NCBI GenBank assembly: GCA_020063565.1
Contig: JAICDB010000001.1
Location: 33,056-97,055 of the forward strand
Origin: Clostridiales bacterium
Lineage (GTDB): Bacteria; Bacillota; DSM-16504; Desulfitibacterales; JAICDB01
Direction of reading: 5' to 3'
Length of the DNA stretch: 64,000 nucleotides
Made by a program: the position numbers and the translations under genes. Below are positions 19,895 to 62,145 of this stretch, piece by piece. Position 1 is the stretch's first letter. Each line of letters starts with the position of its first letter. The notes under the pieces were generated by a model. The model had not been told where the DNA came from and did no database searches. It saw nothing but the letters and a program-made list of their open reading frames with translations.

Positions 19895-19966
19895 ACGGGA
19901 GCAGATGGCCCTATTTATGTGCCATGCTCTAGATTTGTATTATTAAGTTGTGAAGGGGGTATCAAA

Positions 19967-22565: not shown

Positions 22566-22570
22566 TTATT

Positions 22571-23896: not shown

Positions 23897-23900
23897 TAAA

Positions 23901-36310: not shown

Positions 36311-36337
36311 CAAATATATAATATTGCAAACTTACAA
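36311..36337 (+). promoter_or_regulatory. Promoter/operator element upstream of yihQ, shared with the pfk-operon leader
   Basis: CAAATATATAATATTGCAAACTTACAA contains a TATAAT (36317-36322). It shares 18 of 19 nt with 43114-43132, and AATATTGCAAA.TTACAAA with 43251-43269. Confidence 0.55.
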
Positions 36338-42029: not shown

Positions 42030-42184
42030 AACTTTACGCTCCCAACATAAAGATGTGATAATCTTAGTTTATAATAAAGTAGAAAGTTAAGCAAAAAAAA
42101 GAGAAATTATATTTACCAGGATAATTAAAAAAATGAGAACCTTAAAAAAAATTCAAATTGGAATTAAATGGTTGCAAAATTTTC

Positions 42185-42237
42185 TTGAAATATGTGTTCT
42201 TTACATTATAATAAAAGTAAAGTTTGTAATATTACAA
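42185..42237 (+). promoter_or_regulatory. gntR promoter with a perfect palindromic operator just downstream of the -10
   Basis: TTGAAA (42185-42190), 16-nt spacer, TATAAT (42207-42212), then the 14-bp perfect palindrome TTGTAATATTACAA (42224-42237), which fits the GntR-type GT..AC architecture. Confidence 0.65.
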
Positions 42238-42258
42238 AAAATTGGGGAGCGGGAGACC

Positions 42259-43035
42259 ATGCAAAATAGTATTCAGAATTTAGATGCTATGCCATTACAC
42301 TACCGTATTGCATATGAATTGAGAAATAAGCTCCAGAAGGGCTATTGGAAGCCCGGTGACCTGTTTCCTACTGATAAGCAGCTTATGGAACAGTATAATG
42401 TGAGCAGTACTACAGTGCGCAGAGCTATATACGAATTAGTACAGGAAGGATGGCTTGAAAGAAAGCCTGGTAAAGGAACATTTGTAAGAAATCAAATGGT
42501 GGAAAACCTTCGTAAGCTGACAGGTTTCTTTGAAGAAATTCAATCTAAAGGTATGGTTCCGAGTGCAGAAATTATCAAAAGTGAGATTGTAACGGTAGAT
42601 AATAATTTATTGCAGGAAATTCCTCTTTTGCAGGATTTCAATGTTTCTAAGGTATATTTAATTAAAAAAATTCATAAAATGAACAATACACCTGTTGTTT
42701 ATGTGAAAAGTTTTTGGCCTGTTGATATAGGAACTGAAATTGCAAAATATGATCTAACTAAGCAAGGTGTATATAGCATTGTTCAAGATGAATTGGGGAT
42801 TTTACTGAGAGAGGCGTCCCAGACAATTTCAGCCGGTTTAGCTGATAAAGAAGAAGCTGAGGCGTTAAATATAGCGGAAAAGGCTCCAATTTTAGTTATG
42901 AACAGGGCTACCTACAGCAATGAAAGGCTTTTAGAGGTTGCTGTAAACTCCTACAGGGCGGATTTATATAGTTATAAAATTATCTTAAGTCGTAATGATA
43001 TCAAAAAGAATGCAGGCATGGTATTAAATGCCTAA
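42259..43035 (+). CDS. GntR-family (HutC/UTRA subfamily) transcriptional regulator
   Basis: The ORF was trimmed to ATG 42259 (GGGGAGCGGGAG RBS), because the longer ORF would include its own promoter and operator. The wHTH is LFPTDKQLMEQYNVSSTTVRRAIYELVQEGWLERKPGKGTFV, followed by a UTRA-like C-terminal domain. Confidence 0.85.
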   Translation: MQNSIQNLDAMPLHYRIAYELRNKLQKGYWKPGDLFPTDKQLMEQYNVSSTTVRRAIYELVQEGWLERKPGKGTFVRNQMVENLRKLTGFFEEIQSKGMVPSAEIIKSEIVTVDNNLLQEIPLLQDFNVSKVYLIKKIHKMNNTPVVYVKSFWPVDIGTEIAKYDLTKQGVYSIVQDELGILLREASQTISAGLADKEEAEALNIAEKAPILVMNRATYSNERLLEVAVNSYRADLYSYKIILSRNDIKKNAGMVLNA

Positions 43036-43075
43036 AATAAATTTTTTTGTATTGTCCAAAAATTACAGAAATGCA

Positions 43076-43105
43076 TTGACAGTACAATCAATTCAACTTT
43101 ATAAT
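43076..43105 (+). promoter_or_regulatory. Candidate promoter of the pfk-aldolase-ABC-isomerase operon
   Basis: TTGACA (43076-43081), 18-nt spacer, TATAAT (43100-43105). A second TATAAT at 43120-43125 lies inside the element shared with yihQ. Confidence 0.5.
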
Positions 43106-43201
43106 TATGTTAGCAAATATATAATATTACAATATTTCATTTTAATTAAAAATATGGTGTTATAATTACTTTAAGGGTTTATTAATTTTTTTAATTAAAT
43201 A

Positions 43202-43268
43202 TTGTAATATTACAAATTGTAATATTACAAAAGAATTTTTGCAATAATTAAATATTGCAAAATTACAA
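43202..43268 (+). promoter_or_regulatory. Operator array: two tandem perfect TTGTAATATTACAA palindromes plus a degenerate third copy and a 10-bp-arm inverted repeat
   Basis: The perfect copies are at 43202-43215 and 43217-43230, a 15-bp period. TTGCAAAATTACAA lies at 43255-43268. TTTTGCAATA / TATTGCAAAA is an inverted repeat at 43237-43262. Confidence 0.7.
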
Positions 43269-43327
43269 ATGTACAAATTTACAACTTACAACTTTAATTA
43301 AAATTTTTCTGCATGAGGTGATTCACT

Positions 43328-44524
43328 TTGGTTAAAGCAATTGAAGGAAACCTTCTGGTAGGTCAATCAGGAGGGCCCACACCGGTAATTAATGCTAGTT
43401 TAGCGGGAGTTATCTCTGAAGCACAAAGACATAGTAACGTCAAAACTATCTATGGAATGGAGAATGGAATTGAAGGTTTGCTACAAGGCAAGCTTAAAAA
43501 GATTCCAGAAATGTCAGAAAAAAATATCCAATTGCTGGCATCCACACCTGCCTCTGCTTTGGGAAGCTGTAGATATAAGGTGCAGGATGACGATTACCCT
43601 AAGCTTTTGCAAATATTTAAAGAAAATAATATCAGGTACTTCTTTTACATTGGTGGAAACGACTCCATGGATACATGCAACAAAATAGCCAAGCTCGCAG
43701 AGGCTGAGGGCTATGAAATGTATGTTATGGGAGTGCCTAAAACAATTGATAATGACTTGCCTCTCACTGATCACTGCCCCGGATTTGGAAGTGCAGCTCG
43801 TTTTACTGCAGTTAGTACTCTAGGAACAGGTCGCGATCTTGAAGCAATGAAAACATTTGATGATGTAACCATTGTGGAAATTATGGGTCGCCATGCTGGC
43901 TGGCTGGCTGCTTCCTCAGCGCTTTTGAAAAGGGATGTCAAAGATGCGCCACACTTAATTTACTTACCTGAAAGAACCTTTAAAATGGATAAATTCATAG
44001 AAGATGTAAAGACAGTTCATAAGGAATTAGGATATGTATTTGTAGCAATAGGAGAAGGCATTAGAGATGAAAGTGGAGAGTTTATTGGAGCAAAGAATGC
44101 TGTAAAAGATGCCTTCGGACATATTGCAATAGCCCTTAGTGAAGGACCTGCAGCTTATCTGGCAAGGACAGTAAACAAAGAACTTGGCCTGCAAGCTCGC
44201 TACAATCGAAGTGGTACAATTCAGCGAGCTTATTCAGAATCTGTCTCTGATGCTGATAGAAATGAAGCATTTATGGTTGGACAAAAGGCAGTAGAGCTTG
44301 CAGTAAAAGGTGAAACAGGAAAGATGGTAACCCTGGTTAGGGGAGAGGGAACGGAGTATAAGTGTACAACAGGAACAGCTTCCCTTGAGAAGGTGGCTAA
44401 TGTTGAAAAAGTAGTTCCAGACGAATTTATTAACGCTGAAGGCAATTTTGTAACTGAAGCATTTAAGGAATACGCATTGCCACTACTTGGAAGTAATTTG
44501 CCGGAGTATTATAGATTTAAGTAA
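43328..44524 (+). CDS. PfkA-family sugar-phosphate/sulfosugar 1-kinase with PPi-type signature residues
   Basis: 398-aa ORF with TTG start 8 nt after GAGGTG. PFK motifs are SGGPTPVINA, IGGNDS (E. coli IGGDGS), GVPKTIDND (E. coli GLPGTIDND) and EIMGRHAGW. Confidence 0.75.
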   Translation: MVKAIEGNLLVGQSGGPTPVINASLAGVISEAQRHSNVKTIYGMENGIEGLLQGKLKKIPEMSEKNIQLLASTPASALGSCRYKVQDDDYPKLLQIFKENNIRYFFYIGGNDSMDTCNKIAKLAEAEGYEMYVMGVPKTIDNDLPLTDHCPGFGSAARFTAVSTLGTGRDLEAMKTFDDVTIVEIMGRHAGWLAASSALLKRDVKDAPHLIYLPERTFKMDKFIEDVKTVHKELGYVFVAIGEGIRDESGEFIGAKNAVKDAFGHIAIALSEGPAAYLARTVNKELGLQARYNRSGTIQRAYSESVSDADRNEAFMVGQKAVELAVKGETGKMVTLVRGEGTEYKCTTGTASLEKVANVEKVVPDEFINAEGNFVTEAFKEYALPLLGSNLPEYYRFK

Positions 44525-44560
44525 TAGCAACTAGATAAAATTTTTGGGAGAGGTGTTAGT

Positions 44561-45412
44561 ATGAGTTTAGTGACATTAAAAGAAGTAATGGAGCCAAAAG
44601 ACGAAGCATTTGCTGTTGGAGCATTTAGTACTTATGACTTAAGCAGCGCTCTGGGCATAGTAGAAGGAGCTGAAGCAGTTAACCTGCCTGTTATTGCAAT
44701 GATGGGTGCACCGGTTCTTAATGTACCTGGTAATGAGAAAGTTGCTGAAACATTGATTTCATTAGCTAAAATGTCAAGTGTACCTGTTGTTGTGCATTTG
44801 GACCATGCCAAAGATTTTGCAACTTGCATGAAAGCTATTAAGTTAGGATTCAGTTCGGTTATGATTGATGGTTCGACATTAAGTCTGGAAGAAAATATTG
44901 CAGTTACCAATAAAGTAACTGAGGCTGCAAAAGCAGTAGGTGTTTCAGTAGAAGCAGAACTGGGAGCGCTTGCCGGAATTGAAGACGGAGAAGAGGTTAA
45001 GGCTCAAAAAATGACAAATCCCGAGCACATGAAAACATTTTTAGAAGCAACGGATGTTGACGGGTTAGCTGTTTCAATCGGTAATGCCCATGGATTGTAC
45101 AAGGGTGAACCTAACCTGAACTTTGAATTACTTGAAAAGCTGAACGACTTAAGTGATGTTCCCCTCATAATGCATGGTGGAACCGGTCTTACTCAAGAAC
45201 AGTTTGCCAAGGGAATTCAACTGGGAATTAAAAAGATCAATATTGGAACTGAGATCAAAAAGACAACAATTGAAACCTTTATAGAAACACACGGCAAAAA
45301 TGAAAGCGCCTGGGATATGATTGGTATTCCGAAGGCGTGCAGGGAAGCTATTTCTAAAGTTGTTGCTGACAAATTGAAATTTTATAGAAGCGGTTGGAAG
45401 GAACTGGTTTAG
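44561..45412 (+). CDS. Class II (metal-dependent) ketose-bisphosphate aldolase, FbaA/GatY/KbaY family
   Basis: 283-aa ORF with VVHLDHAKD, EAELG, IGNAHG and MHGGTG, which are characteristic of class II FBP/tagatose-bisphosphate aldolases. Confidence 0.8.
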   Translation: MSLVTLKEVMEPKDEAFAVGAFSTYDLSSALGIVEGAEAVNLPVIAMMGAPVLNVPGNEKVAETLISLAKMSSVPVVVHLDHAKDFATCMKAIKLGFSSVMIDGSTLSLEENIAVTNKVTEAAKAVGVSVEAELGALAGIEDGEEVKAQKMTNPEHMKTFLEATDVDGLAVSIGNAHGLYKGEPNLNFELLEKLNDLSDVPLIMHGGTGLTQEQFAKGIQLGIKKINIGTEIKKTTIETFIETHGKNESAWDMIGIPKACREAISKVVADKLKFYRSGWKELV

Positions 45413-45463
45413 TTGGTTGTTGACCAGTAATTGGTTGTGCCAAGCATGAAAGGGAGTGTAAAT

Positions 45464-46570
45464 ATGGCAGAAGTTAAGCTTCAGGGGATATACAAGAGGT
45501 TTAAGGATACAGTTGCAGTATCAAACTTTAACCTGGAAATCAAAGACGGTGAATTCATAGTTCTGGTAGGACCTTCCGGATGTGGGAAAAGTACAACCCT
45601 GAGAATGGTTGCCGGTTTGGAACAACCTTCAGAAGGTAAAATTTATATTGGTGATAAGGACGTAACCTATGCTGAACCCAAAAACAGAGATATAGCAATG
45701 GTATTTCAGGATTATGCGCTATATCCTCATATGAACGTATTTAAGAATATGGCATTTGGATTGCAGTTAAGAAAAATGCCCAAGGACGAAATAAAGAAGA
45801 GGGTGGAGACTGCAGCAGAACGCTTGGGAATTTCACATCTGTTGCATAGAACTCCGAGACAGCTATCAGGTGGTCAGCGTCAGAGGGTAGCTTTGGGAAG
45901 ATCGATTGTAAGGGATCCCCAGGTATTCTTGATGGACGAGCCGCTTTCTAACCTTGACGCTAAATTAAGGGTGCAAATGAGGGCTGAAATAGTTAAGCTC
46001 CAGAAAGGTTTAAATACAACTACTATCTATGTAACTCATGATCAGGTAGAAGCCATGACAATGGGTGATAGGATAGTTGTAATGAAGGATGGCTTTATGC
46101 AGCAAGTAGGTACTCCTTCAGAGATTTATCATGAACCTGCCAACATGTTTGTAGCTGGCTTTGTAGGTTCTCCTAGCATGAACTTTATTGAGGGAGAATT
46201 TGTTCAAAAGGACGGTAAATGCTTCTTTACAGCTCAAGGTATCGAAGTAGAATTACCCGGAAAGCTTTCCGACAAATCATTGTCTTCTAAGTCAGTAGTG
46301 CTTGGCATTCGTCCTGAGGATATTAGGGTAGATGTGGAAAAAACAGACAACTTAACATCTCCTGTGGAATGTAAAGTTGAATTAATTGAAGATCTAGGCG
46401 CCGAAGAAATTGTCTTTCTAAAAACAAAGGGTGGCCAAGAATTTAAAGCACGTATTTCAAGCGACCTTAGTAAAGCTCAAGCTGGTAATAATGTAAATGC
46501 ATATTTCAAGCTTAATAAGATTCATATCTTTGATGCTGAAGAAGGCAGTAAGGTACCCCTTTCTGCTTAA
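45464..46570 (+). CDS. Sugar ABC importer ATPase (MsmX/UgpC/MalK type)
   Basis: The ORF was trimmed to MAEVKLQGIYKRF after an AAAGGGAG RBS. It has Walker [10 protein letters not shown], signature LSGGQRQR, Walker B FLMDEPLSNLD and a C-terminal regulatory (TOBE-like) domain. Confidence 0.9.
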   Translation: MAEVKLQGIYKRFKDTVAVSNFNLEIKDGEFIVLVGPSGCGKSTTLRMVAGLEQPSEGKIYIGDKDVTYAEPKNRDIAMVFQDYALYPHMNVFKNMAFGLQLRKMPKDEIKKRVETAAERLGISHLLHRTPRQLSGGQRQRVALGRSIVRDPQVFLMDEPLSNLDAKLRVQMRAEIVKLQKGLNTTTIYVTHDQVEAMTMGDRIVVMKDGFMQQVGTPSEIYHEPANMFVAGFVGSPSMNFIEGEFVQKDGKCFFTAQGIEVELPGKLSDKSLSSKSVVLGIRPEDIRVDVEKTDNLTSPVECKVELIEDLGAEEIVFLKTKGGQEFKARISSDLSKAQAGNNVNAYFKLNKIHIFDAEEGSKVPLSA

Positions 46571-46696
46571 AAATCTTTAGACTTCATAAAGGGGGTGGGG
46601 TAAAGAGTAAAAGATAACAAGTCAGTCTTAATAAAATTCTAGGAATGTAAATTACGGGACGATTTAATCTATTTAATTTATGGGAGGGTGAACAAT

Positions 46697-47962
46697 TTGA
46701 ACTTCAAGAAGCTGAGTGTGTTGGCAATTGTAGTATTGTTGGTTGGTGCATTTGTTGTAGGTTGTGGTGGAGGAAATGATGAACCTGCAGATCAAGGCGC
46801 AGATTCCGGTGAAAAACAAGTAACAATTAGATTTGCTCACTGGCGTGGAGAAGATAAGGAAGCATTTGAAAAAGTAATTGCTAAGTTCAATGAAGAATAT
46901 CCAAACATCAAAGTTCAGCAGGATATTAGTGGCTCAGAGCAGTACAGAGCAAAAATACAAGCAGAATTGCAATCAGATGCCGGACCTGACGTTTTCACTA
47001 CTTTCCCCGGTGCACATTTTGCTACTTTACAGGAAGCAGGAGTATATGCCGATCTTTCAGGCGCTGAATTCCTGGATCGTTTCTCCCCTCACCTGTTACT
47101 GGCAGGACAGGCTGATGGAAAACAATATGCAGTTCCATACCAGCTGGTATTCAATATCCCCGTATACAATAAAGGGTTATTTGAAAAAGCAGGTGTAGAG
47201 CCTGCAGACAGTTGGGAAGGATTCTTGGAAATGTGTCAGACTTTAAAGGATAACGGTATTACACCTATCATCTTTGACAGTGAAATTGGCCCCGGCCAAT
47301 TTATGAACCCAATGTTAATGAACAATATGCCTACCGATGATGCCTTAACCAGGGTAGAAAAAGGCGAGCTTAAGTTGACAGATGACTGGTTCGTTAAAAC
47401 TCTTGCTCAATTTAAAGAACTTAAGGACAAAGGATTTATGCAGGATGACGTACTTGGAACCAGAAAAGCTGGCGCTGCTGCGTTATTTGCTCAGGAACAA
47501 GGCGCCATGTTAGCTCAAGGGTCATATATGATGGCATCTAACAAACAGCAAAACCCCGATATCAAGCAGGGACTACTTGCACCAATAACAGTACCGGCAG
47601 ATCAAGCAAAGTATGAAGGTATCCATACTTCAACATTTATGATTGGTATTAATGCAAAATCCGAAAAACAAGAAGCTGCTAAGAAGTTTATGGAATTCTT
47701 GTTTAGACCGGAAATTTCCGCAATGTATGCTAATGTAACAGGACAAATGTTGACAGTTAATGGTGTTGAATATGAATCGCCTGAATTAAATGAACAGGCT
47801 AAGTGGCTAGAGAAGAAGACATTATTCCAGCCTAGATACACTTTGACAGTTCAAGAAGTTGAGGATGCAATAGTAAACTCAATTAAAGACGTATTAGGTG
47901 GTATGTCGCCTGAAGAAGCTGCTGCTAAGGCTCAGGAAGAAGTTGAAAGATCTATTAAATAA
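46697..47962 (+). CDS. Extracellular solute-binding lipoprotein (carbohydrate family 1)
   Basis: TTG 46697 lies 9 nt after GGGAGG. The lipoprotein signal has the lipobox FVVGC, and the body is a typical sugar SBP. Confidence 0.85.
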   Translation: MNFKKLSVLAIVVLLVGAFVVGCGGGNDEPADQGADSGEKQVTIRFAHWRGEDKEAFEKVIAKFNEEYPNIKVQQDISGSEQYRAKIQAELQSDAGPDVFTTFPGAHFATLQEAGVYADLSGAEFLDRFSPHLLLAGQADGKQYAVPYQLVFNIPVYNKGLFEKAGVEPADSWEGFLEMCQTLKDNGITPIIFDSEIGPGQFMNPMLMNNMPTDDALTRVEKGELKLTDDWFVKTLAQFKELKDKGFMQDDVLGTRKAGAAALFAQEQGAMLAQGSYMMASNKQQNPDIKQGLLAPITVPADQAKYEGIHTSTFMIGINAKSEKQEAAKKFMEFLFRPEISAMYANVTGQMLTVNGVEYESPELNEQAKWLEKKTLFQPRYTLTVQEVEDAIVNSIKDVLGGMSPEEAAAKAQEEVERSIK

Positions 47963-48040
47963 GGTTTAGAGGGATACTTTCAGCGACAAGAGAGAGGGCA
48001 TGTACCTCTCTCTTATCCTGATAACTAAGGAGGAAAAAAT

Positions 48041-48919
48041 ATGAAAAAGTACTGGGGGCTCTTACCATTTATCATACCAGGGGTCATATTATATACAATC
48101 TTTTTTGCCATACCCTTAGTTTCCTCACTGGCTCTTAGTTTTACAGACTGGAACGGTATATCCCCTGATTATAATTTTGTTGGCTTAAGCAATTATGTTG
48201 AGATGATTACAGATGACCCTATTTTCCATCAAACATTTGGTAACAACCTAAAATACATGTTTTTTGTAGTTATCTTCCAGACATTATTTGCACTTATTTT
48301 TGCCATGTTTTTGGCTAAAAACAGTAAACTCAATGTTTTCTACAGGGCGCTATTCTTTTTCCCCACTGTTATCGCTTCAGTTTCGGTGGCTTTTATCTGG
48401 ATCTTTGTTTATGATCCAAGCATCGGTTCATTAAATACAATCCTTAAATTATTTGGCCTGGACTTTTTGAAACAGTCCTGGTTGGGGGACAAAAACATTG
48501 CAATTTACAGCCTTGCTATAACACAGGTTTGGATGCATACTGGACAGGTGATGATAATCTTTATAGCAGGTTTACAATCTATACCAAAATCACTGTATGA
48601 GGTTGCCAGAATAGAAGGAGCATCAAGGTGGCAGACCTTCCGTAATGTAACATGGCCGCTTTTAGCTCCTGCTGCAACAATTGTTGTAGCATATACCACA
48701 TTGCAGTCATTCAAGGCATTTGACCTCATTCTGGCAATGACCGATGGTGGACCATCCTATGCAACTGAAATATTATCACTCTTTATTTACCACGAAGCAT
48801 TTAGAAACTTCAAATTTGGCTATGCTGCAGCATCAGCGGTGATCTTCTTAATTATCGTATCATTGATTACAATAATTCAATTTAGAATTTTAAATGCCAA
48901 TAAGGTAACCTACAATTAA
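48041..48919 (+). CDS. Sugar ABC permease (UgpA/MalF type)
   Basis: 292-aa ORF with six TM helices and the EAA-loop sequence EVARIEGASRWQTFRNVTWPLL. Confidence 0.9.
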   Translation: MKKYWGLLPFIIPGVILYTIFFAIPLVSSLALSFTDWNGISPDYNFVGLSNYVEMITDDPIFHQTFGNNLKYMFFVVIFQTLFALIFAMFLAKNSKLNVFYRALFFFPTVIASVSVAFIWIFVYDPSIGSLNTILKLFGLDFLKQSWLGDKNIAIYSLAITQVWMHTGQVMIIFIAGLQSIPKSLYEVARIEGASRWQTFRNVTWPLLAPAATIVVAYTTLQSFKAFDLILAMTDGGPSYATEILSLFIYHEAFRNFKFGYAAASAVIFLIIVSLITIIQFRILNANKVTYN

Positions 48920-48933
48920 GGGGTGTATATCAA

Positions 48934-49806
48934 GTGAGTAATTCAAAATTAGATTTACAAAAAGCAGACAAAAAACCAAAAGAAAATATTACGAAGGTTG
49001 ATATTTGGAGACAGTTTCCTCTCCTCATTTATGCAATAATTATCATTACACCTCTTTCACTGGTATTTTTTGCAACTTTTAAAAACCTTAAGCAGCTATA
49101 TTCAGATCCTTTGGGGGTACCTGAAAGTTGGAGCCTTGCCAACTATAAAGCGCTCTTTGCAAATGAGAATATGTTGATATACTTTAAAAACAGTGTAATA
49201 GTAACGTGTATTTCTGTTTTCAGTATTCTTTTACTTGCAAGTATGATTGCCTATGCAATAGTAAGATTACCGAAGTGGATAGGAAATATAGTCTTTGGGT
49301 TTGTAGTAGTGGGAATGATGGTACCTACTCAGGTGAATATGATACCACAGTATCTTTTACTGGATAGACTTAATCTATTGGATAAGCATCTGGGGTTAAT
49401 CTGCGTAACGGTGGCTACATTTTTACCTATTGCAGTATTTATTTTAACAGGATTTATGAAAACTTTGCCGAAAGGTTTAATTGAAGCCGCAAGCATCGAT
49501 GGCGCCTCACACTGGCAAATTTACTCAAGGGTGATGTTGCCTTTATCCGGTCCGTCTCTTGCTACGACAGCTATTTTCTGCTTTGTTATTGTCTGGAACG
49601 ATCTTCTTTATCCGCTGTTGTTCATAAAGTCGGACAGCTTAAAGACAATGCCCCTGGCGCTGCTAGAATTCCAGGGTCAGTATTTGACAAACTACCCAAT
49701 GATTTTCTCGGGAGTAGTGGTAGCTTCTATTCCGATGATTATAATTTATGTTTTCCTTCAGCGCTACTTTATTGCCGGTATGACAGCAGGATCTATGAAA
49801 GGATAA
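48934..49806 (+). CDS. Sugar ABC permease (UgpE/MalG type)
   Basis: 290-aa ORF with the EAA-loop sequence EAASIDGASHWQIYSRVMLPL. Confidence 0.9.
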   Translation: MSNSKLDLQKADKKPKENITKVDIWRQFPLLIYAIIIITPLSLVFFATFKNLKQLYSDPLGVPESWSLANYKALFANENMLIYFKNSVIVTCISVFSILLLASMIAYAIVRLPKWIGNIVFGFVVVGMMVPTQVNMIPQYLLLDRLNLLDKHLGLICVTVATFLPIAVFILTGFMKTLPKGLIEAASIDGASHWQIYSRVMLPLSGPSLATTAIFCFVIVWNDLLYPLLFIKSDSLKTMPLALLEFQGQYLTNYPMIFSGVVVASIPMIIIYVFLQRYFIAGMTAGSMKG

Positions 49807-49932
49807 GTAGAAGTATATTTATATTATGTAAGATTAATGTAATGTCCGGGAACTGTGGAGGGTTTCACTGTTTCTGGAGCTGTGTTAAATGCAAAGTTTG
49901 TAATAATACAAGATTTCTTAGGAGGGCAGTTT

Positions 49933-51273
49933 ATGGAAACCTTAAAACCTGTATACCTGCCAATGGGTAGAACTACATTCCATATGGAAAGTGCCACTGA
50001 TTACTACAACCGTTCCTGTAAAGTAATCAAAGAACTTGCCCCGGGGGCAGAAATGCCGCAAGAATTACTTACTGATTTAGATATGTTAAACAACTATCTT
50101 GATGAAATCAAAAATAAGGATATAGATATTGCAGTTGTTCAAAGTACTACCTTTGTAGATGCTACCTTTACAATAGAAATCGTCAGAAAGCTTTCCTGTC
50201 CCGTATTAGTATGGTGTGTGCGAGAACCCGTTATTGATGGTAGTCGCCTCAGATTAAACTCTCTAACCGGTGGTTTTGCTGCCGGCAATACTTTAAGTAC
50301 CTTTGGCAGAACATTTGATTTTGTATTCGGTAATCCCGAAGAGGAACAAGTGCAGAAAAAATTATCTGCATACTTCAAAGCTGCATCTGTTGTAAAGGGA
50401 TTGAAGAACTTGACTTTAGGGGTAGTAGGAAATGTACCTCCGGGCTTTTTCTTTGGAGAAGAACTCAGTATGAATCTCTTAAATGTCATAGGTGCAAAAT
50501 TGGAACGCTTAGACCTTAACAGTCTGATTCAAGAGGCGAAAGAATTGAAAACCGGTGAGTATGAAGAGGCACTTGCAGAATTGAAGGAGAAAATCTTCGG
50601 CATTGAAGAAATTGAAGAGGAACAAGTAGATAAAAACGCTCGCTTTAGAACAGTTCTTAAAAAACATGTGGAAGAAAAAGGAATTAAGGCAATTGCTAGT
50701 CGTTGCTGGCCTACAGTATTCCAGGAGTATAATGCTGCAATTTGTGCCACCCTTTCTTTATTTACTGAAGAAGGAATTGTATCTTCCTGTGAAGCTGATA
50801 TTGGCGGCGCAATCAGCATGTATATCCAGAAACAAATTACAGGAGAACCTCCATATTTCGGAGACCCTGTTTCATTAGATGAAGAAAAGAATTCTATTAT
50901 TTACTGGCATTGTGGTGCAGGAGCTTGTTCACTTGCTAGAACCGATACAGGCGCCCGCGCAGGAAGACATCCTAACCGTAAGCTTGGGCTGTCATTGGAA
51001 TTTGGTCTTAAGGACGGCAGGGTTACAGTTTGCCGCTTCGGTAAGGGGCCAAACGGTTACCGTCTTTTTATCATGGCTGGTGAAGCGCTGGATGAACCTC
51101 AAAAGTTTCTTGGAACATCTGTTGAAGTACGCCCTGACGGAAATGCAGCTGAAATTGTAAATTCAGCAATTAATGAAGGTTGGGAACCTCACTTTTCAGT
51201 GGTTTACGGAGATATAACCGAGGAGTTAAAGGCTGTAGCCAAACTATTAAACATTGAAGTTGTAGAGTATTAA
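49933..51273 (+). CDS. L-fucose/L-arabinose isomerase-family aldose-ketose isomerase (short form)
   Basis: The ORF was trimmed to METLKPVYLP after an AGGAGGG RBS. The family resemblance (SSCEADIGGA, YWHCGAG, GWEPHFSVVYGD) is recalled by eye and not verified. Confidence 0.6.
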   Translation: METLKPVYLPMGRTTFHMESATDYYNRSCKVIKELAPGAEMPQELLTDLDMLNNYLDEIKNKDIDIAVVQSTTFVDATFTIEIVRKLSCPVLVWCVREPVIDGSRLRLNSLTGGFAAGNTLSTFGRTFDFVFGNPEEEQVQKKLSAYFKAASVVKGLKNLTLGVVGNVPPGFFFGEELSMNLLNVIGAKLERLDLNSLIQEAKELKTGEYEEALAELKEKIFGIEEIEEEQVDKNARFRTVLKKHVEEKGIKAIASRCWPTVFQEYNAAICATLSLFTEEGIVSSCEADIGGAISMYIQKQITGEPPYFGDPVSLDEEKNSIIYWHCGAGACSLARTDTGARAGRHPNRKLGLSLEFGLKDGRVTVCRFGKGPNGYRLFIMAGEALDEPQKFLGTSVEVRPDGNAAEIVNSAINEGWEPHFSVVYGDITEELKAVAKLLNIEVVEY

Positions 51274-51288
51274 GAGAGGGGACCTGTG

Positions 51289-52401
51289 ATGCTTGCCGCC
51301 GATTTGCAAAAGGAGATAGCAGTAAAAGAAGAACGAGTGAACAAGCTAATAAAAGAAAAAGGTTTAGACGGTATTTGCCTTTTTAAGGCTGCTAACTTTC
51401 ACTGGTTTACAGCCGGTGGAACCAACAGGGTTGTGACAGGTTCTGAAAAGGGATGTGCCGTAATATTAATTATGGAAGGTAAGAAGTATTTAATTTCACC
51501 TTCCAATGAAATCGACAGGCTCCTTGCAGAACAACTCCCCGATCAAGGTTTTGAGAGATGTACTTTCTACTGGTATGAAACTCCCATGAAAGTAATCAAA
51601 GAACTAGCCGGAGATAAGAGGCTAGGTAGTGATATAGCAGTTCCGGGAATGACTGAGATCGGAGTTGATATAGACAGGTTGCGCTTTTCCCTGACATCGC
51701 AGGAAGTGGAAAAGGCAAGAAAAATTGCGGAAATCTCCTCTCGTGAAACAGCAGCATTATGTGCTAGTCTCAAACCAGGCATGACCGAATATGAGATAAC
51801 GGCTTTACTTTCTGAAACACTTTTAAGAGAAGGGATAAATCCTGCAGTACTACTTGTTGGTACTGATGAGAGGGTGTTTACCTGCAGGCACCCGGTACCT
51901 GTAGAAAAGAAACTTCAAAAGTATGCACTCATCAGTCTGGTAGGGGAAAAGTGGGGATTGCACGTTACACTGACTCGTGCAGTATATTTTGGCAGCCTGC
52001 CGGAAGATTTGAAGAAAAAACAGGAACTTGTCAATCGGGTGGATGCCACATTTATAGCAAATACCATTGCAGGAAAGATGAGTGATGATGTATTTAATGC
52101 AGGTAAAGAAGAATATGCTTGTGTTGGCTATCCTGATGAATGGAAAATGCATCACCAGGGTGGAGCCATAGGATATGCTCCCCGTGAATATCGTGGCGGG
52201 GAAGGCAGAAATGAAAAAGTTATAGTAAATCAAATGTTTGGGTGGAACCCAACACTGCAGGGAACAAAAAGTGAAGATACAATTTTAGTTAATGCTAAAG
52301 GAATTCCAACTATAATAACGAATGTACCCGGGTGGTGGCCTACCCAGGAAATTAACGTAAATGATTCAATTATAAATCGTCCCATGATTTTAGAAATATA
52401 G
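51289..52401 (+). CDS. M24 (creatinase/prolidase, pita-bread fold)-like protein lacking most metal ligands
   Basis: 370-aa ORF with a creatinase/prolidase-type N-domain and a pita-bread C-domain. By-eye alignment to PepP/prolidase motifs shows D->L, D->T, H->G and E->N at four of the five metal-ligand positions. Confidence 0.6.
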   Translation: MLAADLQKEIAVKEERVNKLIKEKGLDGICLFKAANFHWFTAGGTNRVVTGSEKGCAVILIMEGKKYLISPSNEIDRLLAEQLPDQGFERCTFYWYETPMKVIKELAGDKRLGSDIAVPGMTEIGVDIDRLRFSLTSQEVEKARKIAEISSRETAALCASLKPGMTEYEITALLSETLLREGINPAVLLVGTDERVFTCRHPVPVEKKLQKYALISLVGEKWGLHVTLTRAVYFGSLPEDLKKKQELVNRVDATFIANTIAGKMSDDVFNAGKEEYACVGYPDEWKMHHQGGAIGYAPREYRGGEGRNEKVIVNQMFGWNPTLQGTKSEDTILVNAKGIPTIITNVPGWWPTQEINVNDSIINRPMILEI

Positions 52402-52410
52402 GTTATTTTC

Positions 52411-52468
52411 AGGCCGCCCCCTTTCCTCCTAATCCTCCTCCCGGGATTGGGGGCTGGCTGTTTTTTTA
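52411..52468 (+). terminator. Strong intrinsic terminator inside the operon, between the M24-like gene and the moaD-like gene
   Basis: CAGGCCGCCCCC ... GGGGGCTGGCTG stem enclosing a C/T-rich loop, followed by TTTTTTT. Confidence 0.65.
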
Positions 52469-52497
52469 ATTTCACTTTTTCATTGGGGGTTTTTTTG

Positions 52498-52722
52498 ATG
52501 ATTACCGTTAAATTTAGCCCTGGAACAAAAGCCTATAAAAAACACGGTTCCCGGATTGAAATGACTTGGCAAGACGGAACTATTGATGATTTACTTGCCA
52601 AATTGGCAGTTGACAAAAGGGAAGTAGGTAGTGTTCTTGTCAATAATTCTCCCAAAAATTTAGATGAAAAATTGCAGGATAACTGTGAAGTTTATATCCT
52701 CCCTGTAATTTGCGGTGGTTAA
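52498..52722 (+). CDS. ThiS/MoaD-like beta-grasp protein ending in Gly-Gly
   Basis: 74-aa ORF trimmed to MITVKF. The C-terminus is ...LPVICGG. It lies immediately upstream of the ferredoxin and AOR genes, as in AOR maturation/accessory arrangements. Confidence 0.6.
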   Translation: MITVKFSPGTKAYKKHGSRIEMTWQDGTIDDLLAKLAVDKREVGSVLVNNSPKNLDEKLQDNCEVYILPVICGG

Positions 52723-52752
52723 TAGAAACTGGAAGATTAGGGTGGTGAAATA

Positions 52753-53235
52753 ATGTCCAGAAAAGTATTGACAGTTGAAAAAAGCAAGTGTATTGGTTGC
52801 AGAATTTGTGAACAGTGGTGTAGCTTGACCCATCACGGTGTAATAAACCCTGCCAAAGCAAGGGTAAAGGTAACTCGAATTGAAGAATCCGGTGTTGATG
52901 TGCCTGTTATTTGTACCCAGTGCAGCAAGGCTGCATGTATAGCAGCATGTCCTGAAGGCGCTTTATCCAAAAATTCTAAAACAGGTGCAATAAAGGTAGA
53001 TAAGGAAAAATGTACTGCGTGCAGAAAATGTGTAACTGCTTGCCCTAATGCTGCAATATCAGTCCACCCGGAAGATGAGTATGTTTTAATCTGTGATTTG
53101 TGTAACGGCAAGCCCAAATGTGTGGAAAACTGTCCTGAAAAAGCTCTGCAGTATCTCCCCATTGAAACCAGTGAACGAATTTATAGAAGCAAAGTAGTCA
53201 GGGATACTGCAAAAGGGGGTAAGCGCTGTGGCTAA
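52753..53235 (+). CDS. 4x[4Fe-4S]-type polyferredoxin (AOR electron-transfer subunit)
   Basis: 160-aa ORF with four Cys clusters (CIGCRICEQWC, CTQCSKAACIAACP, CTACRKCVTACP, CDLCNGKPKCVENCP). It overlaps the AOR start. Confidence 0.85.
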   Translation: MSRKVLTVEKSKCIGCRICEQWCSLTHHGVINPAKARVKVTRIEESGVDVPVICTQCSKAACIAACPEGALSKNSKTGAIKVDKEKCTACRKCVTACPNAAISVHPEDEYVLICDLCNGKPKCVENCPEKALQYLPIETSERIYRSKVVRDTAKGGKRCG

Positions 53236-55030
53236 TCTAGGAGCAGTCAACGGAAAACTTTTAAGGGTTAACCTAACAACTGGTAACGCTATAGTAGAGG
53301 ATATACCTCAAGAAATATATACAAAATATTTTGGCGGCAGGGGTGCCGGGACCAGGTATCTCTTCGATGAAGTGCCTACAGATACTGATCCTTTAAGTGA
53401 AAATAACAAGCTGATATTTTTAAACGGCCCTATGGCCGGTACCATGGCTCCCGGAAGCAACAAAATAGCAGTGACTTTTAAATCCCCTGCTACAAACGGT
53501 ATTGCTTCATCACTATGTGGTGGTCATTTTGGTCCTGAGTTGAAGTTTGCAGGTTATGATGCTTTGATAATTGAAGGAAAATCTGAAAAGCCTGTTTACC
53601 TCTGGATTCAAAATGATGAAGTTCAAATTAAAGATGCTTCTTCATACTGGGGCAAAAATATTCCTGAAACAGGAGAAGGAATTAAGAAGGAACTTGGTGG
53701 AGACGAAAACATTCATGTAGCTTGTATCGGCCCGGCAGGAGAAAACTTAAATGTAATAGCCTGCATTACAGCCGAAAGACACAGGGAATTTGGACGCCCC
53801 GGTGCCGGAGCTGTTATGGGTTCTAAGAACTTAAAAGCAATAGCTATCAAGGGAACTCAAGATGTTAAGCCTGCTAAAGCAGGAAAAATGGCTAATTATG
53901 TTAAGGAACTGTATAAAGAGTTTGCAAACAATCCCAAGGCAAACGCCAGAAGAAACTATGGAACAGTTGAAATGGTAGACGGTATCAATAAGCTCGGATT
54001 TTGGTCCACAAGAAACTTCAGCCAGGGGCAGTTTGAAGGTGCCGACAAATTAACAGGTCCAATGATGAGGCAGGAGATAGTTGTAGAAGACACTTCCTGT
54101 TATGCATGTCCTATTGCCTGCGGTAAAGTTTCCTGTGTAGAATCCGAAAAATACGGTACAGTTCATATCGAAGGGCCTGAATTTGAGACATTGGGGCTTT
54201 TAGGGCCAAACTGCGGCATAGGTGATTGGGAATATATCCTGAAAGCCGCAGAAGTATGTGACTATAACGGTATGGATACGATTTCTGCCGGGGCAACAGT
54301 ATCCATGGCTATGGAATGCTATGAAAAAGGAATAATTACAAAAGAAGATACCGGTGGTATAGAATTAAAATTCGGAAACGGTGAAGCATTGATTGCAATC
54401 CTGGAGAAAATGGCAAAAAGAGAAGGAATCGGCGATATTTTGGCTCAAGGGTTAAAGGTAGCTGCAGAGAAGTTTGGTGCGCCTGAACTGGCAATGCACA
54501 GCAAGGGAGTTTCGCCTGCAACCTATGACCCAAGAGGCAGCAAGGGGATGGCAGTAACCTATGCCACTTCACCTAAGGGTGCCCATCATATGATATCACC
54601 GACTATGGGGGCAGAAATTGCAGGTGACCGTTTTGCAGAAACAGGAAAGGCAGCTATGATCAAGGATACCCAGATCCAAATGGCGCTTGTCGATTCACTT
54701 GGTTACTGTTCAAGTATGAGATTTGTAATGCAGGTCGACCATCAGCTTGAACTCTTCAAGCTTTCCACAGGTTTGGAAATGACTAAGGAAGACTTTTATA
54801 CTGTGGGAGAACGGGTGCTCAACCTTGAAAGGCAGTATAACGTAAACTGCGGCATGACCAGAAAAGACGACAGCCTCCCCAAGAGATTCCTCAAGGAAGC
54901 AATGGAGGACGGTCCTAGCAAAGGACAAACAATAAACCTGGATTTAATGCTCGATGAGTTTTATGCGGAAATGGGCTGGGATAAAGACGGTAAACCAACA
55001 GAAGAAAAATTGGCAAGCCTTGGATTATAA
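53228..55030 (+). CDS. Tungsten-type aldehyde:ferredoxin oxidoreductase (AOR family)
   Basis: 600-aa ORF with the AOR N-terminal domain (GKLLRVNLTTG...YFGGRGAG), the cluster-binding context CYACPIACGK, and full-length resemblance to the AOR family. Confidence 0.85.
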   Translation: MANLGAVNGKLLRVNLTTGNAIVEDIPQEIYTKYFGGRGAGTRYLFDEVPTDTDPLSENNKLIFLNGPMAGTMAPGSNKIAVTFKSPATNGIASSLCGGHFGPELKFAGYDALIIEGKSEKPVYLWIQNDEVQIKDASSYWGKNIPETGEGIKKELGGDENIHVACIGPAGENLNVIACITAERHREFGRPGAGAVMGSKNLKAIAIKGTQDVKPAKAGKMANYVKELYKEFANNPKANARRNYGTVEMVDGINKLGFWSTRNFSQGQFEGADKLTGPMMRQEIVVEDTSCYACPIACGKVSCVESEKYGTVHIEGPEFETLGLLGPNCGIGDWEYILKAAEVCDYNGMDTISAGATVSMAMECYEKGIITKEDTGGIELKFGNGEALIAILEKMAKREGIGDILAQGLKVAAEKFGAPELAMHSKGVSPATYDPRGSKGMAVTYATSPKGAHHMISPTMGAEIAGDRFAETGKAAMIKDTQIQMALVDSLGYCSSMRFVMQVDHQLELFKLSTGLEMTKEDFYTVGERVLNLERQYNVNCGMTRKDDSLPKRFLKEAMEDGPSKGQTINLDLMLDEFYAEMGWDKDGKPTEEKLASLGL

Positions 55031-55096
55031 TATAATATCGGCCGGTAGCCCTTTTATGGGCACCGGCTGTAATTATGGTAGAAAAGAAGGGTTAAA

Positions 55097-55993
55097 ATGC
55101 CAGGATTGGTAAGTGTTTTAGTGGCTGCAACGGGTAATGGACTCTATCTAACTTTAAGTAAGCTTGTATTAGCTTCAAACTCCCCGGTACTCTTTGGTTT
55201 TTTTGTAATGGGCCTTACGGTACTTGTGATAGGAAGCTATATTGTCTATAAATTCGGTTTTAAAAAAGCTGTAGAAATCATTTTAAATTACTGGGTATTT
55301 CTGGTTATAGTGGGGTGTTTCAGTTCTTTATTAAATTTTCTTAATTTTGCAGGTTTAATATACAGCAGTGCCATTAACTCGGCAATTATTAACAGGCTCG
55401 ATGTCTTTTTTACTGCCTTACTTGGAGGAATATTTTTTGGTGAAAGACTTCAAAAGAATGATTGGCTAGCAGTACTTTTTATGATGCTAGGTGTATTTTT
55501 GGTATTAAGGATTGATTTTTCGCAGTTAACATTAAATACTGGAGATATTTTCTTTCTTATAAGCACTTTTTTGCAGGCGGTTAATGCCCAGTTCATACGT
55601 TATAAACTTACAGAAGTCCCCGGGCCTATCATAGCATTTTGTAACACAGGTATTTGCACAACTGTATATTTGTTTTCAAGTATCTTTTTGGAATACTGGG
55701 TTCAAATACAAGGTTTTGCCGGTTTTAGATTAATAACAATTATCTGCGGTTTACTCTTTGTTTTACAATTACTCTTGTATTATGGCGGGCTGAAAAAATT
55801 ACCTACCTGGCTGGCAAGAGCTTTGTATCTAGTAGCTCCGGTAGTTGGTACTGTCAGCAGCATTCTGTTATTAAACGAAAATTTTTATATAGAACAACTC
55901 TATGGAATGCTGCTTGTAGGAATTGGTGTTATCATTATATCTCTAGGACAGAAGAAAGTTAAAAAAAATCAAATATTGAAAGAAAGTATATAA
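55097..55993 (+). CDS. EamA/DMT-family transporter (10 TM)
   Basis: 298-aa hydrophobic ORF with duplicated 5-TM EamA-like halves. Confidence 0.75.
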   Translation: MPGLVSVLVAATGNGLYLTLSKLVLASNSPVLFGFFVMGLTVLVIGSYIVYKFGFKKAVEIILNYWVFLVIVGCFSSLLNFLNFAGLIYSSAINSAIINRLDVFFTALLGGIFFGERLQKNDWLAVLFMMLGVFLVLRIDFSQLTLNTGDIFFLISTFLQAVNAQFIRYKLTEVPGPIIAFCNTGICTTVYLFSSIFLEYWVQIQGFAGFRLITIICGLLFVLQLLLYYGGLKKLPTWLARALYLVAPVVGTVSSILLLNENFYIEQLYGMLLVGIGVIIISLGQKKVKKNQILKESI

Positions 55994-56070
55994 TTTTATA
56001 TATAACATTCCCTGCAATCCCTTAGTATCATTAGTAGTACCGGTTTTTATTATGGGTAAGTTGGGAACAA

Positions 56071-56112
56071 CGCAATTTGATATTGCTGTGCAATATTATA
56101 TTGCGTTTCTTG
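56071..56112 (+). promoter_or_regulatory. Long AT-rich hairpin / double palindrome in the glpK upstream region (terminator-like or operator)
   Basis: CGCAATTTGATATTGC-TGT-GCAATATTATATTGCG is a 16-bp stem with one mismatch and one G-T pair, followed by TTTCTT. It contains two GCAAT-N5-ATTGC palindromes (56072-56086, 56090-56104); a third copy lies at 56165-56179. Confidence 0.5.
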
Positions 56113-56323
56113 GATCTTAATAGTATTTAGACATAGTTGTGGTTTTTAATTCATATATTAAACTGCAATTATATATTGCATTAATTTTAGTTACTAAGAA
56201 GTTAGTCATATAAGTTGATGTTTATGATGTATATAGTATAGACTCACTAACTTACCTGTTTTGGCATAAATTTTGCGTTATTTATTTTTATATTAATGAA
56301 ATAAATCGGGGAGGGTTTAAAAA

Positions 56324-57814: not shown

Positions 57815-57830
57815 AAGGAGGAATGACTCC

Positions 57831-61908: not shown

Positions 61909-62145
61909 GTGAAATCTCAAGTTAGAAAATGGGGCAATAGCCTCGGAATTCGAATACCTAAATTACTTGCAAAACAGGTAGGAATTGATGAAGGGACTCC
62001 CGTAGACATAGAGATAGCAGGTGAAAAAATTGAAATAAAACCCAGTGCAAAAATTACTTTAAAAGAACTCGTCTACCGCATTACTCCGGAGAACATGCAC
62101 GGTGAAGTGGATTGCGGTGAACCTAAGGGGCGAGAGGAATGGTAG
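61909..62145 (+). CDS. mazE: MazE/PemI-type antitoxin (SpoVT/AbrB fold)
   Basis: 78-aa ORF; VRKWGNSLGIRIPK is the typical swapped-hairpin motif. It overlaps the mazF start. Confidence 0.85.
   Translation: MKSQVRKWGNSLGIRIPKLLAKQVGIDEGTPVDIEIAGEKIEIKPSAKITLKELVYRITPENMHGEVDCGEPKGREEW

Follow-up and report, generated by a model that had tools for sequence, protein, structure and literature searches.

A predicted sulfoquinovose regulon in a Clostridiales bacterium: a sulfo-EMP2 core with a candidate aldehyde:ferredoxin oxidoreductase module

Introduction

Anaerobic turnover of sulfoquinovose (SQ) is currently described as a process divided over organisms, in which fermenters with an NAD-linked sulfoglycolysis form 2,3-dihydroxypropane-1-sulfonate (DHPS), sulfolactate or isethionate, and a second organism then respires the sulfonate. 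A stretch of 64,000 nucleotides from a Clostridiales bacterium (assembly GCA_020063565.1, contig JAICDB010000001.1, positions 33,056 to 97,055), hereafter called the window, contains a gene string that raises two questions: which sugar does it serve, and which enzyme processes the aldehyde that this sugar would yield? The string runs from a GntR/HutC-family regulator through a kinase, an aldolase, an ATP-binding cassette (ABC) importer and an isomerase to an aldehyde:ferredoxin oxidoreductase (AOR) and an EamA transporter, and it lies downstream of a gene for a YihQ-type sulfoquinovosidase. The original prediction regarded it as an undescribed operon for SQ or SQ-glycerol (SQGro), built from non-canonical parts according to the logic of a sulfonated Embden-Meyerhof-Parnas (sulfo-EMP) pathway.

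One variant of this pathway, sulfo-EMP2, uses SqvB (PF16161), the isomerase SqvD (PF02952), the kinase SqiK (PF00365) and the class II aldolase SqiA (PF01116), after which sulfolactaldehyde (SLA) is processed by YihU or SlaB (PMC10665668, PMC9594981, PMC12890257). It is known from Bacillus urumqiensis and Megamonas rupellensis (Liu et al., 2021; for reviews see PMC9594981, PMC10665668). The core of the window is the same published combination of PF02952, PF00365 and PF01116, to which the original prediction had alluded, and the pathway is thus not undescribed as had been thought. What is new is the terminal module (a MoaD-like protein, a polyferredoxin, the AOR and EamA), the probable pyrophosphate (PPi) dependence of the kinase, and an accessory protein of the M24 fold in the place of SqvB. 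As had been supposed, a working role in sulfoglycolysis has been described neither for the AOR step nor for the M24-like protein.

We consider it probable, at roughly 0.6, that the window encodes a GntR/HutC-controlled regulon for the anaerobic catabolism of SQGro or SQ that follows the known sulfo-EMP2 route and ends in a new terminal module. The ABC system would import SQGro, which YihQ would split in the cytoplasm into SQ and glycerol, the latter being converted to dihydroxyacetone phosphate (DHAP) by GlpK and GlpABC. The SftI/SqvD isomerase would turn SQ into sulfofructose, to be phosphorylated at C1 by the phosphofructokinase (PFK)-family kinase, probably with PPi as donor, and cleaved by the class II aldolase to DHAP and SLA. 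In place of the NAD-dependent YihU or SlaB, a polyferredoxin/AOR pair of the AorA type would oxidize SLA to sulfolactate, with a cofactor matured with the help of the MoaD-like protein and with electrons passing to ferredoxin, and EamA would export the sulfolactate.

Gene Order and Core Enzymes

Scans of the list of open reading frames (ORFs) with Pfam and NCBIfam recovered the whole of the predicted gene string, co-directional and in the proposed order, on the plus strand, which also carries yihQ, glpK-glpABC and the two control regions described below. Only short gaps separate the genes, those for the polyferredoxin and the AOR share 8 nucleotides, and no convincing plus-strand terminator was found inside the string. 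Related loci from other genomes were divided into two types by the similarity of their solute-binding protein (SBP), permeases and isomerase. Type A comprises the window, Clostridiaceae BRH_c20a (L087/L171), L172, the cultured isolate Thermanaerosceptrum fracticalcis DRI-13 (L170), L173 and the fragment L006, with identities to the window of 64-68% for the SBP (full length), 67-79% for the permeases and 51-56% for the isomerase; type B comprises L085, L003, L007-L009 and L169 (Dehalobacterium). Two clusters of the sulfo-transaldolase (sulfo-TAL) pathway, from Eubacterium sp. (L174) and Clostridium beijerinckii (L175), served as controls; in both the genes run GH31, transaldolase, SLA reductase, DUF4867, isomerase, TauE.

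The isomerase of the FucI/AraA family (49933-51273) has a single NCBIfam match, to the model NF048012 for 'sulfoquinovose isomerase SftI' (536 bits). This score is below the NCBI equivalog cut-off of 700 bits, but the isomerases of the canonical sulfo-TAL clusters, to which the window protein is 46-47% identical, reach just 420 bits (L174) and 460 bits (L175), so that the cut-off is narrow and the window isomerase is at least as SftI-like as those of the sulfo-TAL pathway. We therefore place it in the SftI/SqvD family, and the idea that it is an undescribed, non-orthologous replacement had to be dropped. Its ORF is open from 49855 and gene callers start it at 49933, which gives 446 amino acids; the protein is 100% identical to PWQ96_1706 and found no match in the PDB.

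The kinase (43328-44524; PF00365, 196 bits), the candidate for the role of SqiK as a sulfofructose 1-kinase, scores 495 bits on the NCBIfam model PRK14072 of the PPi-PFK subfamily (cut-off 273), and among PDB entries it comes closest to the PPi-PFKs 3HNO and 3K2Q. It carries the signature of the PPi type, D112 and K138, which correspond to Asp at position 104 and Lys at position 124 in the E. coli numbering, and from this signature and the subfamily we predict PPi as the phosphoryl donor with moderate confidence. All catalytic residues of PfkA are kept, as are the equivalents of Arg243 and Arg252, the two arginines that hold the anion at C6. A comparison of the specificity positions of five cluster sequences with 73 generic PPi-PFKs found the catalytic and anion-binding residues unchanged, and in a metagenome scan anchored on the kinase the homologues of at most 52% identity were housekeeping PPi-PFKs with no operon context.

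The class II (Zn) ketose-phosphate aldolase (44561-45412; PF01116, 272 bits) is the candidate sulfofructose-1-phosphate aldolase and matches HpSqiA and YaSqiA (PDB 8Q58 and 8Q57) with 175 bits. Its Zn-binding His ligands are kept, and Ile254 replaces the Arg of the 'DPRK' motif that binds the 6-phosphate in fructose-bisphosphate aldolase, at the position where SqiA has Ala257. This Arg is missing from all the cluster aldolases, as it is from SqiA. The fourth sulfo-EMP2 family, PF16161 (SqvB/DUF4867), had no match among the scanned ORFs of the window or in the type-A loci, and is present in both sulfo-TAL controls.

Linkage to YihQ, a Common Operator and Glycerol Genes

The sulfoquinovosidase that had been recognized upstream of the operon is a clear member of its family. 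This GH31 protein (36359-38368) scores 983 bits on the NCBIfam model PRK10426 (cut-off 553), and the solved sulfoquinovosidases PDB 8R56 and 5AED are matched at E 1e-249 (5AED at E 2e-248). The catalytic Asp segments and the motifs GKRxxWNW ('fgkrlfwnw') and DIGGYT ('sdiggyt') are conserved in the alignment, and we take these motifs to carry the sulfonate-binding Arg, Trp and Tyr of YihQ (residue numbering of Speciale et al., 2016). No signal peptide was seen in the protein, which is predicted to be cytoplasmic. In the window yihQ lies 3.8 kb upstream of the operon, and in L087 the distance is 7 kb. The yihQ of L173 (65% identity; 949 bits against the model of E. coli YihQ) lies inside the operon itself, between the kinase and the ABC genes, and this operon runs on with the isomerase, M24, MoaD, polyferredoxin and AOR genes as far as glpK.

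A regulatory connection between yihQ and the operon, also proposed in the original prediction, is supported by their operator-like elements. The 18-mer AAATATATAATATTRCAA is confined to two sites, one upstream of yihQ (36312) and one upstream of the kinase gene (43115); the yihQ copy, AAATATATAATATTGCAA (36312-36329), agrees in 17 of its 18 bases with positions 43115-43132. All five occurrences of the motif TAATATT[AG]CAA in the 64 kb are upstream of yihQ, gntR or the kinase gene. The perfect palindrome TTGTAATATTACAA is found at 42224, 43202 and 43217 and degenerate copies at 43119, 43255 and 49898, the last of them before the isomerase gene; with up to two mismatches there are six matches where 0.7 are expected, and none of 100 shuffles reached six. 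The operon control region (43076-43268) begins with a sigma-70 promoter (43076-43105) that agrees with the consensus in 12 of 12 bases, followed by the 18-mer that is shared with yihQ, the two perfect palindromes downstream of the promoter and the degenerate copy at 43255.

The gene for the GntR/HutC regulator (GntR helix-turn-helix and UTRA domains; PF00392, PF07702) has a control site of its own, a promoter-like TTGAAA-16-TATAAT followed by a perfect palindrome at 42224-42237 (together 42185-42237). This site falls within the long ORF that is open from 42133, and the orthologues have 253-257 amino acids, for which reason the true start is probably the ATG at 42259 (gene 42259-43035), a call for which the N-terminus was compared with the L173 orthologue. 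Comparable palindromes stand upstream of operon genes in L087, L001 (Desulfitispora), L170, L171 and L173; in L087 an operator-like element is located about 40 nucleotides upstream of yihQ, and in L085 and L165 (Desulfitibacter sp. BRH_c19) a comparable palindrome precedes the polyferredoxin-AOR pair. Because these palindromes are common to yihQ, gntR, the kinase gene and the AOR pair of relatives, we infer that yihQ, the operon and, where it was looked at, the AOR pair form one GntR regulon.

The nature of the imported sugar is suggested by the genes at the far end. As had been noted, the operon is directly followed by genes for glycerol kinase and anaerobic glycerol-3-phosphate dehydrogenase (56324-61802; glpK 56324-57814, glpABC 57831-61802; identified by Pfam). 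The same genes follow the SQ genes in every type-A locus that reaches far enough, and they adjoin SQ genes in L001, L087/L171, L170, L172, L173 and the sulfo-TAL cluster L175. The arrangement recurs in six independent loci. This fits a glycerol glycoside, SQGro, that is imported and then split in the cytoplasm. The candidate SQGro importer (45431-49806) consists, according to Pfam, of a MalK-type ATPase (45431-46570), a lipoprotein SBP with the lipobox VVGC (46688-47962) and two permeases (48041-48919 and 48934-49806), and its orthologues (63-79% identity) are confined to type-A loci linked to yihQ and glp genes. The presence of yihQ upstream with a common operator-like element, the yihQ inside the L173 operon, the adjacency of the glp genes and the loss of the aldolase Arg together support the assignment to SQ or SQGro well, and the earlier view of an SQ/SQGro operon with sulfo-EMP logic is very probably right.

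The AOR Module and the Fate of Sulfolactaldehyde

The sulfo-EMP2 enzymes that process SLA have no visible counterpart in the window. It contains no match to PF03446, PF00171 or PF00465, the families considered for an NAD(H)-dependent SLA reductase (YihU) or dehydrogenase (SlaB), and in agreement with the original prediction no typical Pfam match to YihS, YihV, YihT, YihU or SlaB was found among its scanned ORFs; the AOR module stands in that place. The AOR (53228-55030; AFOR_N and AFOR_C domains) belongs to the tungstopterin family and matches the Pyrococcus furiosus enzyme 1AOR with 490 bits, a closeness that is usual for bacterial AORs, and AorAB(C) of Aromatoleum aromaticum (8C0Z) with 423 bits. 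The four Cys of the cluster and the equivalents of the active-site Glu and His are conserved. The polyferredoxin encoded before it (52753-53235) has its best PDB matches among the Fe-S partner subunits of AOR-family enzymes, namely 9MQX_E, 6X6U_B (WOR5-S) and 8C0Z_C (AorA), and is the predicted electron-transfer subunit. There is no AorC-like FAD/NAD subunit in the operon, which points to an AorAB-type enzyme with ferredoxin as the likely acceptor. The small MoaD/ThiS-like protein (52498-52722; PF02597; 74 amino acids from the start at 52498 set by gene callers, within an ORF from 52447) ends in VICGG with the C-terminal Gly-Gly, and is probably a sulfur carrier in the maturation of the AOR cofactor; in L170 and L173, too, its gene stands ahead of the polyferredoxin-AOR pair. 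No genes for tungsten uptake were found in the window.

The AOR belongs to a narrow clade. A protein search returned 16 proteins of at least 61% identity, after which identity drops to at most 59%, the level of generic AORs. Several of the 16 are encoded on contigs shared with homologues of the M24 protein, the isomerase and the kinase, and every one of which the surroundings were read (Desulfitispora, Dehalobacterium, Desulfitibacter, T. fracticalcis and L173) adjoins them. The AORs of L085 (58%) and L105, which are more distant or partial, are likewise found beside kinase and aldolase genes.

Sulfolactate as the product is indicated by the genes that surround the module in relatives. In Desulfitispora (L001) and Dehalobacterium (L169) it adjoins a split pair of a SAF protein (about 100 amino acids) and a GD_AH protein (389 amino acids), with the two GD_AH large subunits 76% identical to each other. 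A LarA homologue is encoded next to the AOR in L169, where it passes the cut-off of the model 'malate racemase LarAH5'; in L173 one is encoded immediately upstream of gntR. Among sulfonates, sulfolactate is the analogue of malate, and the sulfolactate sulfo-lyase SuyAB requires the (R)-isomer, while SQ yields (S)-SLA. The sizes and architecture of the SAF and GD_AH pair are those of SuyAB (sizes from PMC6278857). Thus the SuyAB-like pairs (L001, L169) and LarA-type genes (L169, L173) both point to sulfolactate. No SuyAB or LarA gene was found in the window, of which the EamA/DMT transporter (55097-55993; PF00892) would fit the export of sulfolactate; EamA homologues are also located near the AOR in L165 and L169. 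The original prediction that the operon ends in an aldehyde-oxidizing AOR module and an exporter is supported. The relevant regions of the relatives (L001 269-5891, L169 4958-10758 and L173 1-287, with a TRAP transporter in Desulfitispora) hint at a complete conversion of SQ to sulfite in a single sulfite-reducing Firmicute and at a Ni-pincer sulfolactate racemase.

The original prediction had implied that AORs had never been connected with SLA. This is not so, since the DHPS-induced AOR of Desulfovibrio sp. DF1 was proposed to oxidize SLA to sulfolactate; the recombinant enzyme was inactive on SLA and its role was left open (PMC6278857). This precedent was the only one found in a search of the literature for a connection of AOR or tungsten with SLA or SQ. 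The genome paper of T. fracticalcis does not mention SQ, AOR or a glucosidase, and the sulfofucose pathway was set aside as a precedent because it is a route of the Entner-Doudoroff type.

Several observations weigh against the reading given here, and a number of them favor an alternative in which the operon remains a sulfo-EMP2 operon for SQ or SQGro but its AOR does not act on SLA. The AOR would then be a broad aldehyde scavenger or an acid reducer, SLA would be reduced to DHPS (or oxidized) by an enzyme whose gene lies elsewhere, and the product would leave through EamA. A YihU or SlaB gene could indeed lie elsewhere in the genome, the negative result given above being one for the scanned ORFs of the window. 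The AOR is not obligatory, as the orthologous operons L087/L171 and L172 lack it and have an MFS transporter or nothing in its place. Nor is the module specific to SQ, given that an AOR is also part of the paralogous operon L085, which combines divergent forms of the isomerase and aldolase with an O-demethylase system and appears to serve another sugar. AORs are known as broad-range enzymes, and a comparison of 17 members of the clade with 103 generic AORs gave five clade-specific positions, none of which is an obvious sulfonate-binding cation. The AOR of DF1, the sole AOR ever tried on SLA, was inactive, although it was inactive on every other aldehyde tried as well (PMC6278857). The SuyAB call is based on architecture and size, since NCBIfam has no SuyAB model and the names in the source annotation are generic. 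Two further points concern the core: the kinase is likened to SqiK by family (PF00365) and gene context and not by direct sequence comparison, and the SBP resembles the SQGro binder SmoF (7NBZ; 45 bits, E 1e-10) no more than it does other, unrelated sugar binders, so that it gives no SQ-specific signal.

We nevertheless regard an AOR that does not act on SLA as unlikely. No alternative SLA enzyme is encoded in the window, in L170 or in L173, there is a tight linkage of the AOR clade with the kinase and aldolase genes, with the same operator-like palindrome ahead of the pair in L085 and L165, and the SuyAB-like and LarA-type genes of the relatives fit sulfolactate and not DHPS. The operons without AOR have a peculiarity of their own: a gene for a D-2-hydroxyacid dehydrogenase is conserved divergently upstream of gntR (L087 5709-6695, L171 1-840 and L172 493-1470, all on the minus strand), and it may encode the SLA or sulfopyruvate enzyme of this variant.

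The M24-Fold Accessory Protein

Directly behind the isomerase gene lies the gene for a protein of the M24 (pita-bread) fold (51286-52401), with weak matches to PF00557 and PF01321. Its AlphaFold model (pLDDT 94) has the two-domain fold of prolidases and creatinases, and a fold search returned prolidase, creatinase, DoeA and DddP at TM-scores of about 0.75, a generic result that gives no functional resolution. The earlier statement that it has no metal site stands: both Asp ligands and the His of the dinuclear site are replaced or absent, one Glu is uncertain, and the last Glu (E330) alone is kept of the five. Judged by these losses, the protein is not to be filed as a peptidase. Across 22 relatives the residues R78, R133, R196, R201, R231, R300, H289, H290 and E330 are invariant.

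A genome scan anchored on this protein found the M24-like family in the genomes of at least 594 species, and most of the wider family is encoded in sugar operons, together with FGGY kinases, AraA, AraD-like proteins, URO-D proteins and LacI regulators. Among the matches listed, only those of at least 47% identity belong to kinase/aldolase/isomerase clusters, and the rest belong to unrelated sugar operons. The metal-free family (L005-L084), apparently an uncharacterized family of sugar catabolism, is spread across Chloroflexota, Armatimonadota, Planctomycetota, Hadarchaeota and other phyla.

Two contigs from Logan indicate that the protein can be spared. In L166 (99.8% identity to the window) the M24 gene alone has been cleanly deleted, with its last ~30 nucleotides left (window 51279-52371), and L167 has a clean single-gene deletion of EamA (window 55080-56307); the identities of the two contigs to the window are 99.3-99.8%. 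As each gene is deleted in a near-identical contig, M24 and EamA are dispensable accessories, and the contigs suggest that both can be lost at the level of strains.

In type-A loci the M24 gene always directly follows the isomerase gene and SqvB (DUF4867) is always missing, whereas the sulfo-TAL controls do carry SqvB. The M24 protein might fill the niche of the missing SqvB mutarotase as a helper of the isomerase, an idea we put forward as rather doubtful. The protein could instead be a hydrolase or lyase that acts on a small anionic or zwitterionic side-substrate, such as a modified SQ derivative or a sulfonate by-product. This suggestion draws on the analogy with creatinase, the ectoine hydrolase DoeA and the dimethylsulfoniopropionate lyase DddP, which its fold matches as well as it does prolidases, and agrees with the many invariant Arg, His and Glu residues and with the frequent co-occurrence of URO-D-family genes. 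We think it improbable, however, as the chemical steps of the pathway have all been assigned and leave no evident candidate substrate, a near-identical strain in nature does without the gene, and its fixed position behind the isomerase together with the absence of SqvB suggests otherwise.

Related Loci and the Choice of Sugar

The type-B loci have divergent isomerases (about 300 bits on the SftI model) and divergent aldolases, have genes for URO-D or Gfo/Idh or, in the case of L085, a full set for O-demethylation, and probably handle other sugars. L085 (3465-18614), which stems from the metagenome that also yielded L087, is a paralogous operon with an ABC importer, isomerase (31% identity to the window), GntR (59%), kinase (70%), aldolase (40%), a URO-D methyltransferase, a corrinoid protein, a pterin-binding methyltransferase, the polyferredoxin and the AOR, in this order, and looks like a pathway for O-methylated sugars that follows the same kinase/aldolase/AOR logic. 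L165, from rock porewater, is a large cluster that is a composite of types A and B, with two SftI-like isomerases (58% and 51%), two URO-D proteins, an AP_endonuc_2 TIM-barrel protein, Gfo/Idh, M24, EamA, the polyferredoxin-AOR pair and a kinase.

These loci also bear on an argument in the original prediction, according to which a 1-kinase of the PFK type makes sense only for a sugar with an anion at C6: the retention of the two arginines that bind this anion is consistent with it, whereas the existence of paralogous kinase/aldolase/AOR operons for what appear to be other sugars (L085) weakens it. That the operon of the window serves a different sugar or glycoside, such as a neutral 6-deoxyhexose or another C6-modified hexose, which would yield DHAP and an aldehyde for the AOR while yihQ is functionally separate, might be argued from related kinase/aldolase/isomerase/M24 clusters with URO-D and Gfo/Idh and no yihQ in view (Moorella, Desulfosporosinus, Desulfitobacterium and Desulfitibacter), from the uninformative SBP and from the occurrence of the wider M24-like family in pentose and hexose operons, but is very unlikely in view of the yihQ inside the L173 operon, the operator element shared with yihQ in two genomes, the grouping of the isomerase with SftI of the proven type of sulfo-TAL clusters (at least 420 bits) and not with type B, and the adjacent glp genes expected for a glycerol glycoside.

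Genomic Surroundings

The window is part of a metagenome-assembled Clostridia genome, and the surroundings of the operon suit a strict anaerobe, with genes for the futalosine route to menaquinone, for biotin, for a bza cluster and for an [FeFe]-hydrogenase. The bza cluster, for anaerobic biosynthesis of the benzimidazole lower ligand (17175-25403), has two ThiC-like genes, CobT, a methyltransferase with DUF2284 and two B12/radical-SAM genes. The large subunit of the [FeFe]-hydrogenase, which has a ferredoxin domain, is encoded on the minus strand (30542-32050) about 4 kb upstream of yihQ, and might serve as an outlet for the ferredoxin that the AOR reduces. A gene for a DUF362 protein with an inserted 4Fe-4S dicluster domain (39370-40440) lies between yihQ and the operon, and its neighbors are an SLT transglycosylase, a HEAT-repeat protein and a CN-hydrolase on the opposite strand; no link of the DUF362 protein to the pathway was found. 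Directly after glpC, at about 61.9-62.5 kb, follows a toxin-antitoxin pair of the MazE/PemK type (PemK ORF 62139-62477), seen in the gene calls of L166 and L167, with the position of MazE inferred from L166.

Comparison With Known Systems

Like the sulfo-EMP2 clusters, that of the window combines the three core families with yihQ in a Firmicutes host, has the same predicted intermediates (SQ, sulfofructose and sulfofructose-1-phosphate, followed by DHAP and SLA), and encodes an aldolase without the Arg for the distal phosphate, as in the crystal structures of SqiA. It differs in the M24-fold protein that takes the place of SqvB behind the isomerase, in the MoaD-like protein, polyferredoxin and AOR that take the place of YihU or SlaB, in the PPi-PFK signature of the kinase, and in the use of an ABC importer and the fusion of the cluster to glpK-glpABC. 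With the sulfo-TAL clusters that anaerobic Firmicutes carry (E. rectale, C. symbiosum and others, including L174 and L175) it shares YihQ and the SftI isomerase, and with that of C. beijerinckii also the adjoining glp genes. However, those clusters use a transaldolase for the kinase and aldolase and carry an NAD_binding_2 SLA reductase, DUF4867 and a TauE exporter.

Desulfovibrio sp. DF1 resembles the window in having an AOR-family gene within an organosulfonate cluster as a candidate for oxidizing SLA to sulfolactate, but its AOR is encoded beside a proven NAD-dependent SlaB in a second-tier pathway for DHPS (Burrichter et al., 2018, PMC6278857), whereas the window has no SlaB and would encode a primary SQ pathway. 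The window AOR has the Fe-S Cys and the active-site Glu and His of the tungsten AORs (1AOR; 8C0Z), with an AorA-like partner and a MoaD-like maturation gene in the same operon. Unlike AorABC of Aromatoleum it lacks the AorC-like FAD/NAD subunit, and unlike the known tungsten AORs it is tied by its context to a sugar operon and not to aldehydes of amino acids or aromatic compounds. As in the SmoEFGH system of Agrobacterium tumefaciens, a sugar ABC system of the CUT1 family is part of the SQ gene cluster, although the low similarity of the SBP to SmoF allows no inference on specificity.

Significance

Should the AOR oxidize SLA, this step would be linked to ferredoxin and probably dependent on tungsten, and SQ fermentation would have a different redox and energy balance, as the reduced ferredoxin could be used for H2 formation or ion pumping. 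SQ degradation in Clostridia of the subsurface and of digesters would then depend on tungsten, and AORs would gain a defined physiological substrate. The relatives with SuyAB- and LarA-like genes suggest in addition that SQ may be converted fully to sulfide within a single Firmicute. A joint reading of these observations is a sulfoglycolysis of strict anaerobes that is based on ferredoxin and tungsten and has four parts: a sulfofructose kinase that depends on PPi, a dedicated clade of tungsten AORs that oxidizes SLA to sulfolactate and yields low-potential electrons, a metal-free M24 accessory (for example as a mutarotase replacing SqvB), and the coupling to a LarA-type racemase and SuyAB in sulfite reducers such as Desulfitispora and Dehalobacterium. 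We offer this joint reading as a tentative possibility, to which we give less than even odds. The hypotheses are testable in cultured carriers, namely T. fracticalcis DRI-13 and Desulfitispora alkaliphila DSM 22410. With the last part of the joint reading, one anaerobe would mineralize SQ via sulfite to sulfide, without the hand-over between two organisms that has been assumed so far.

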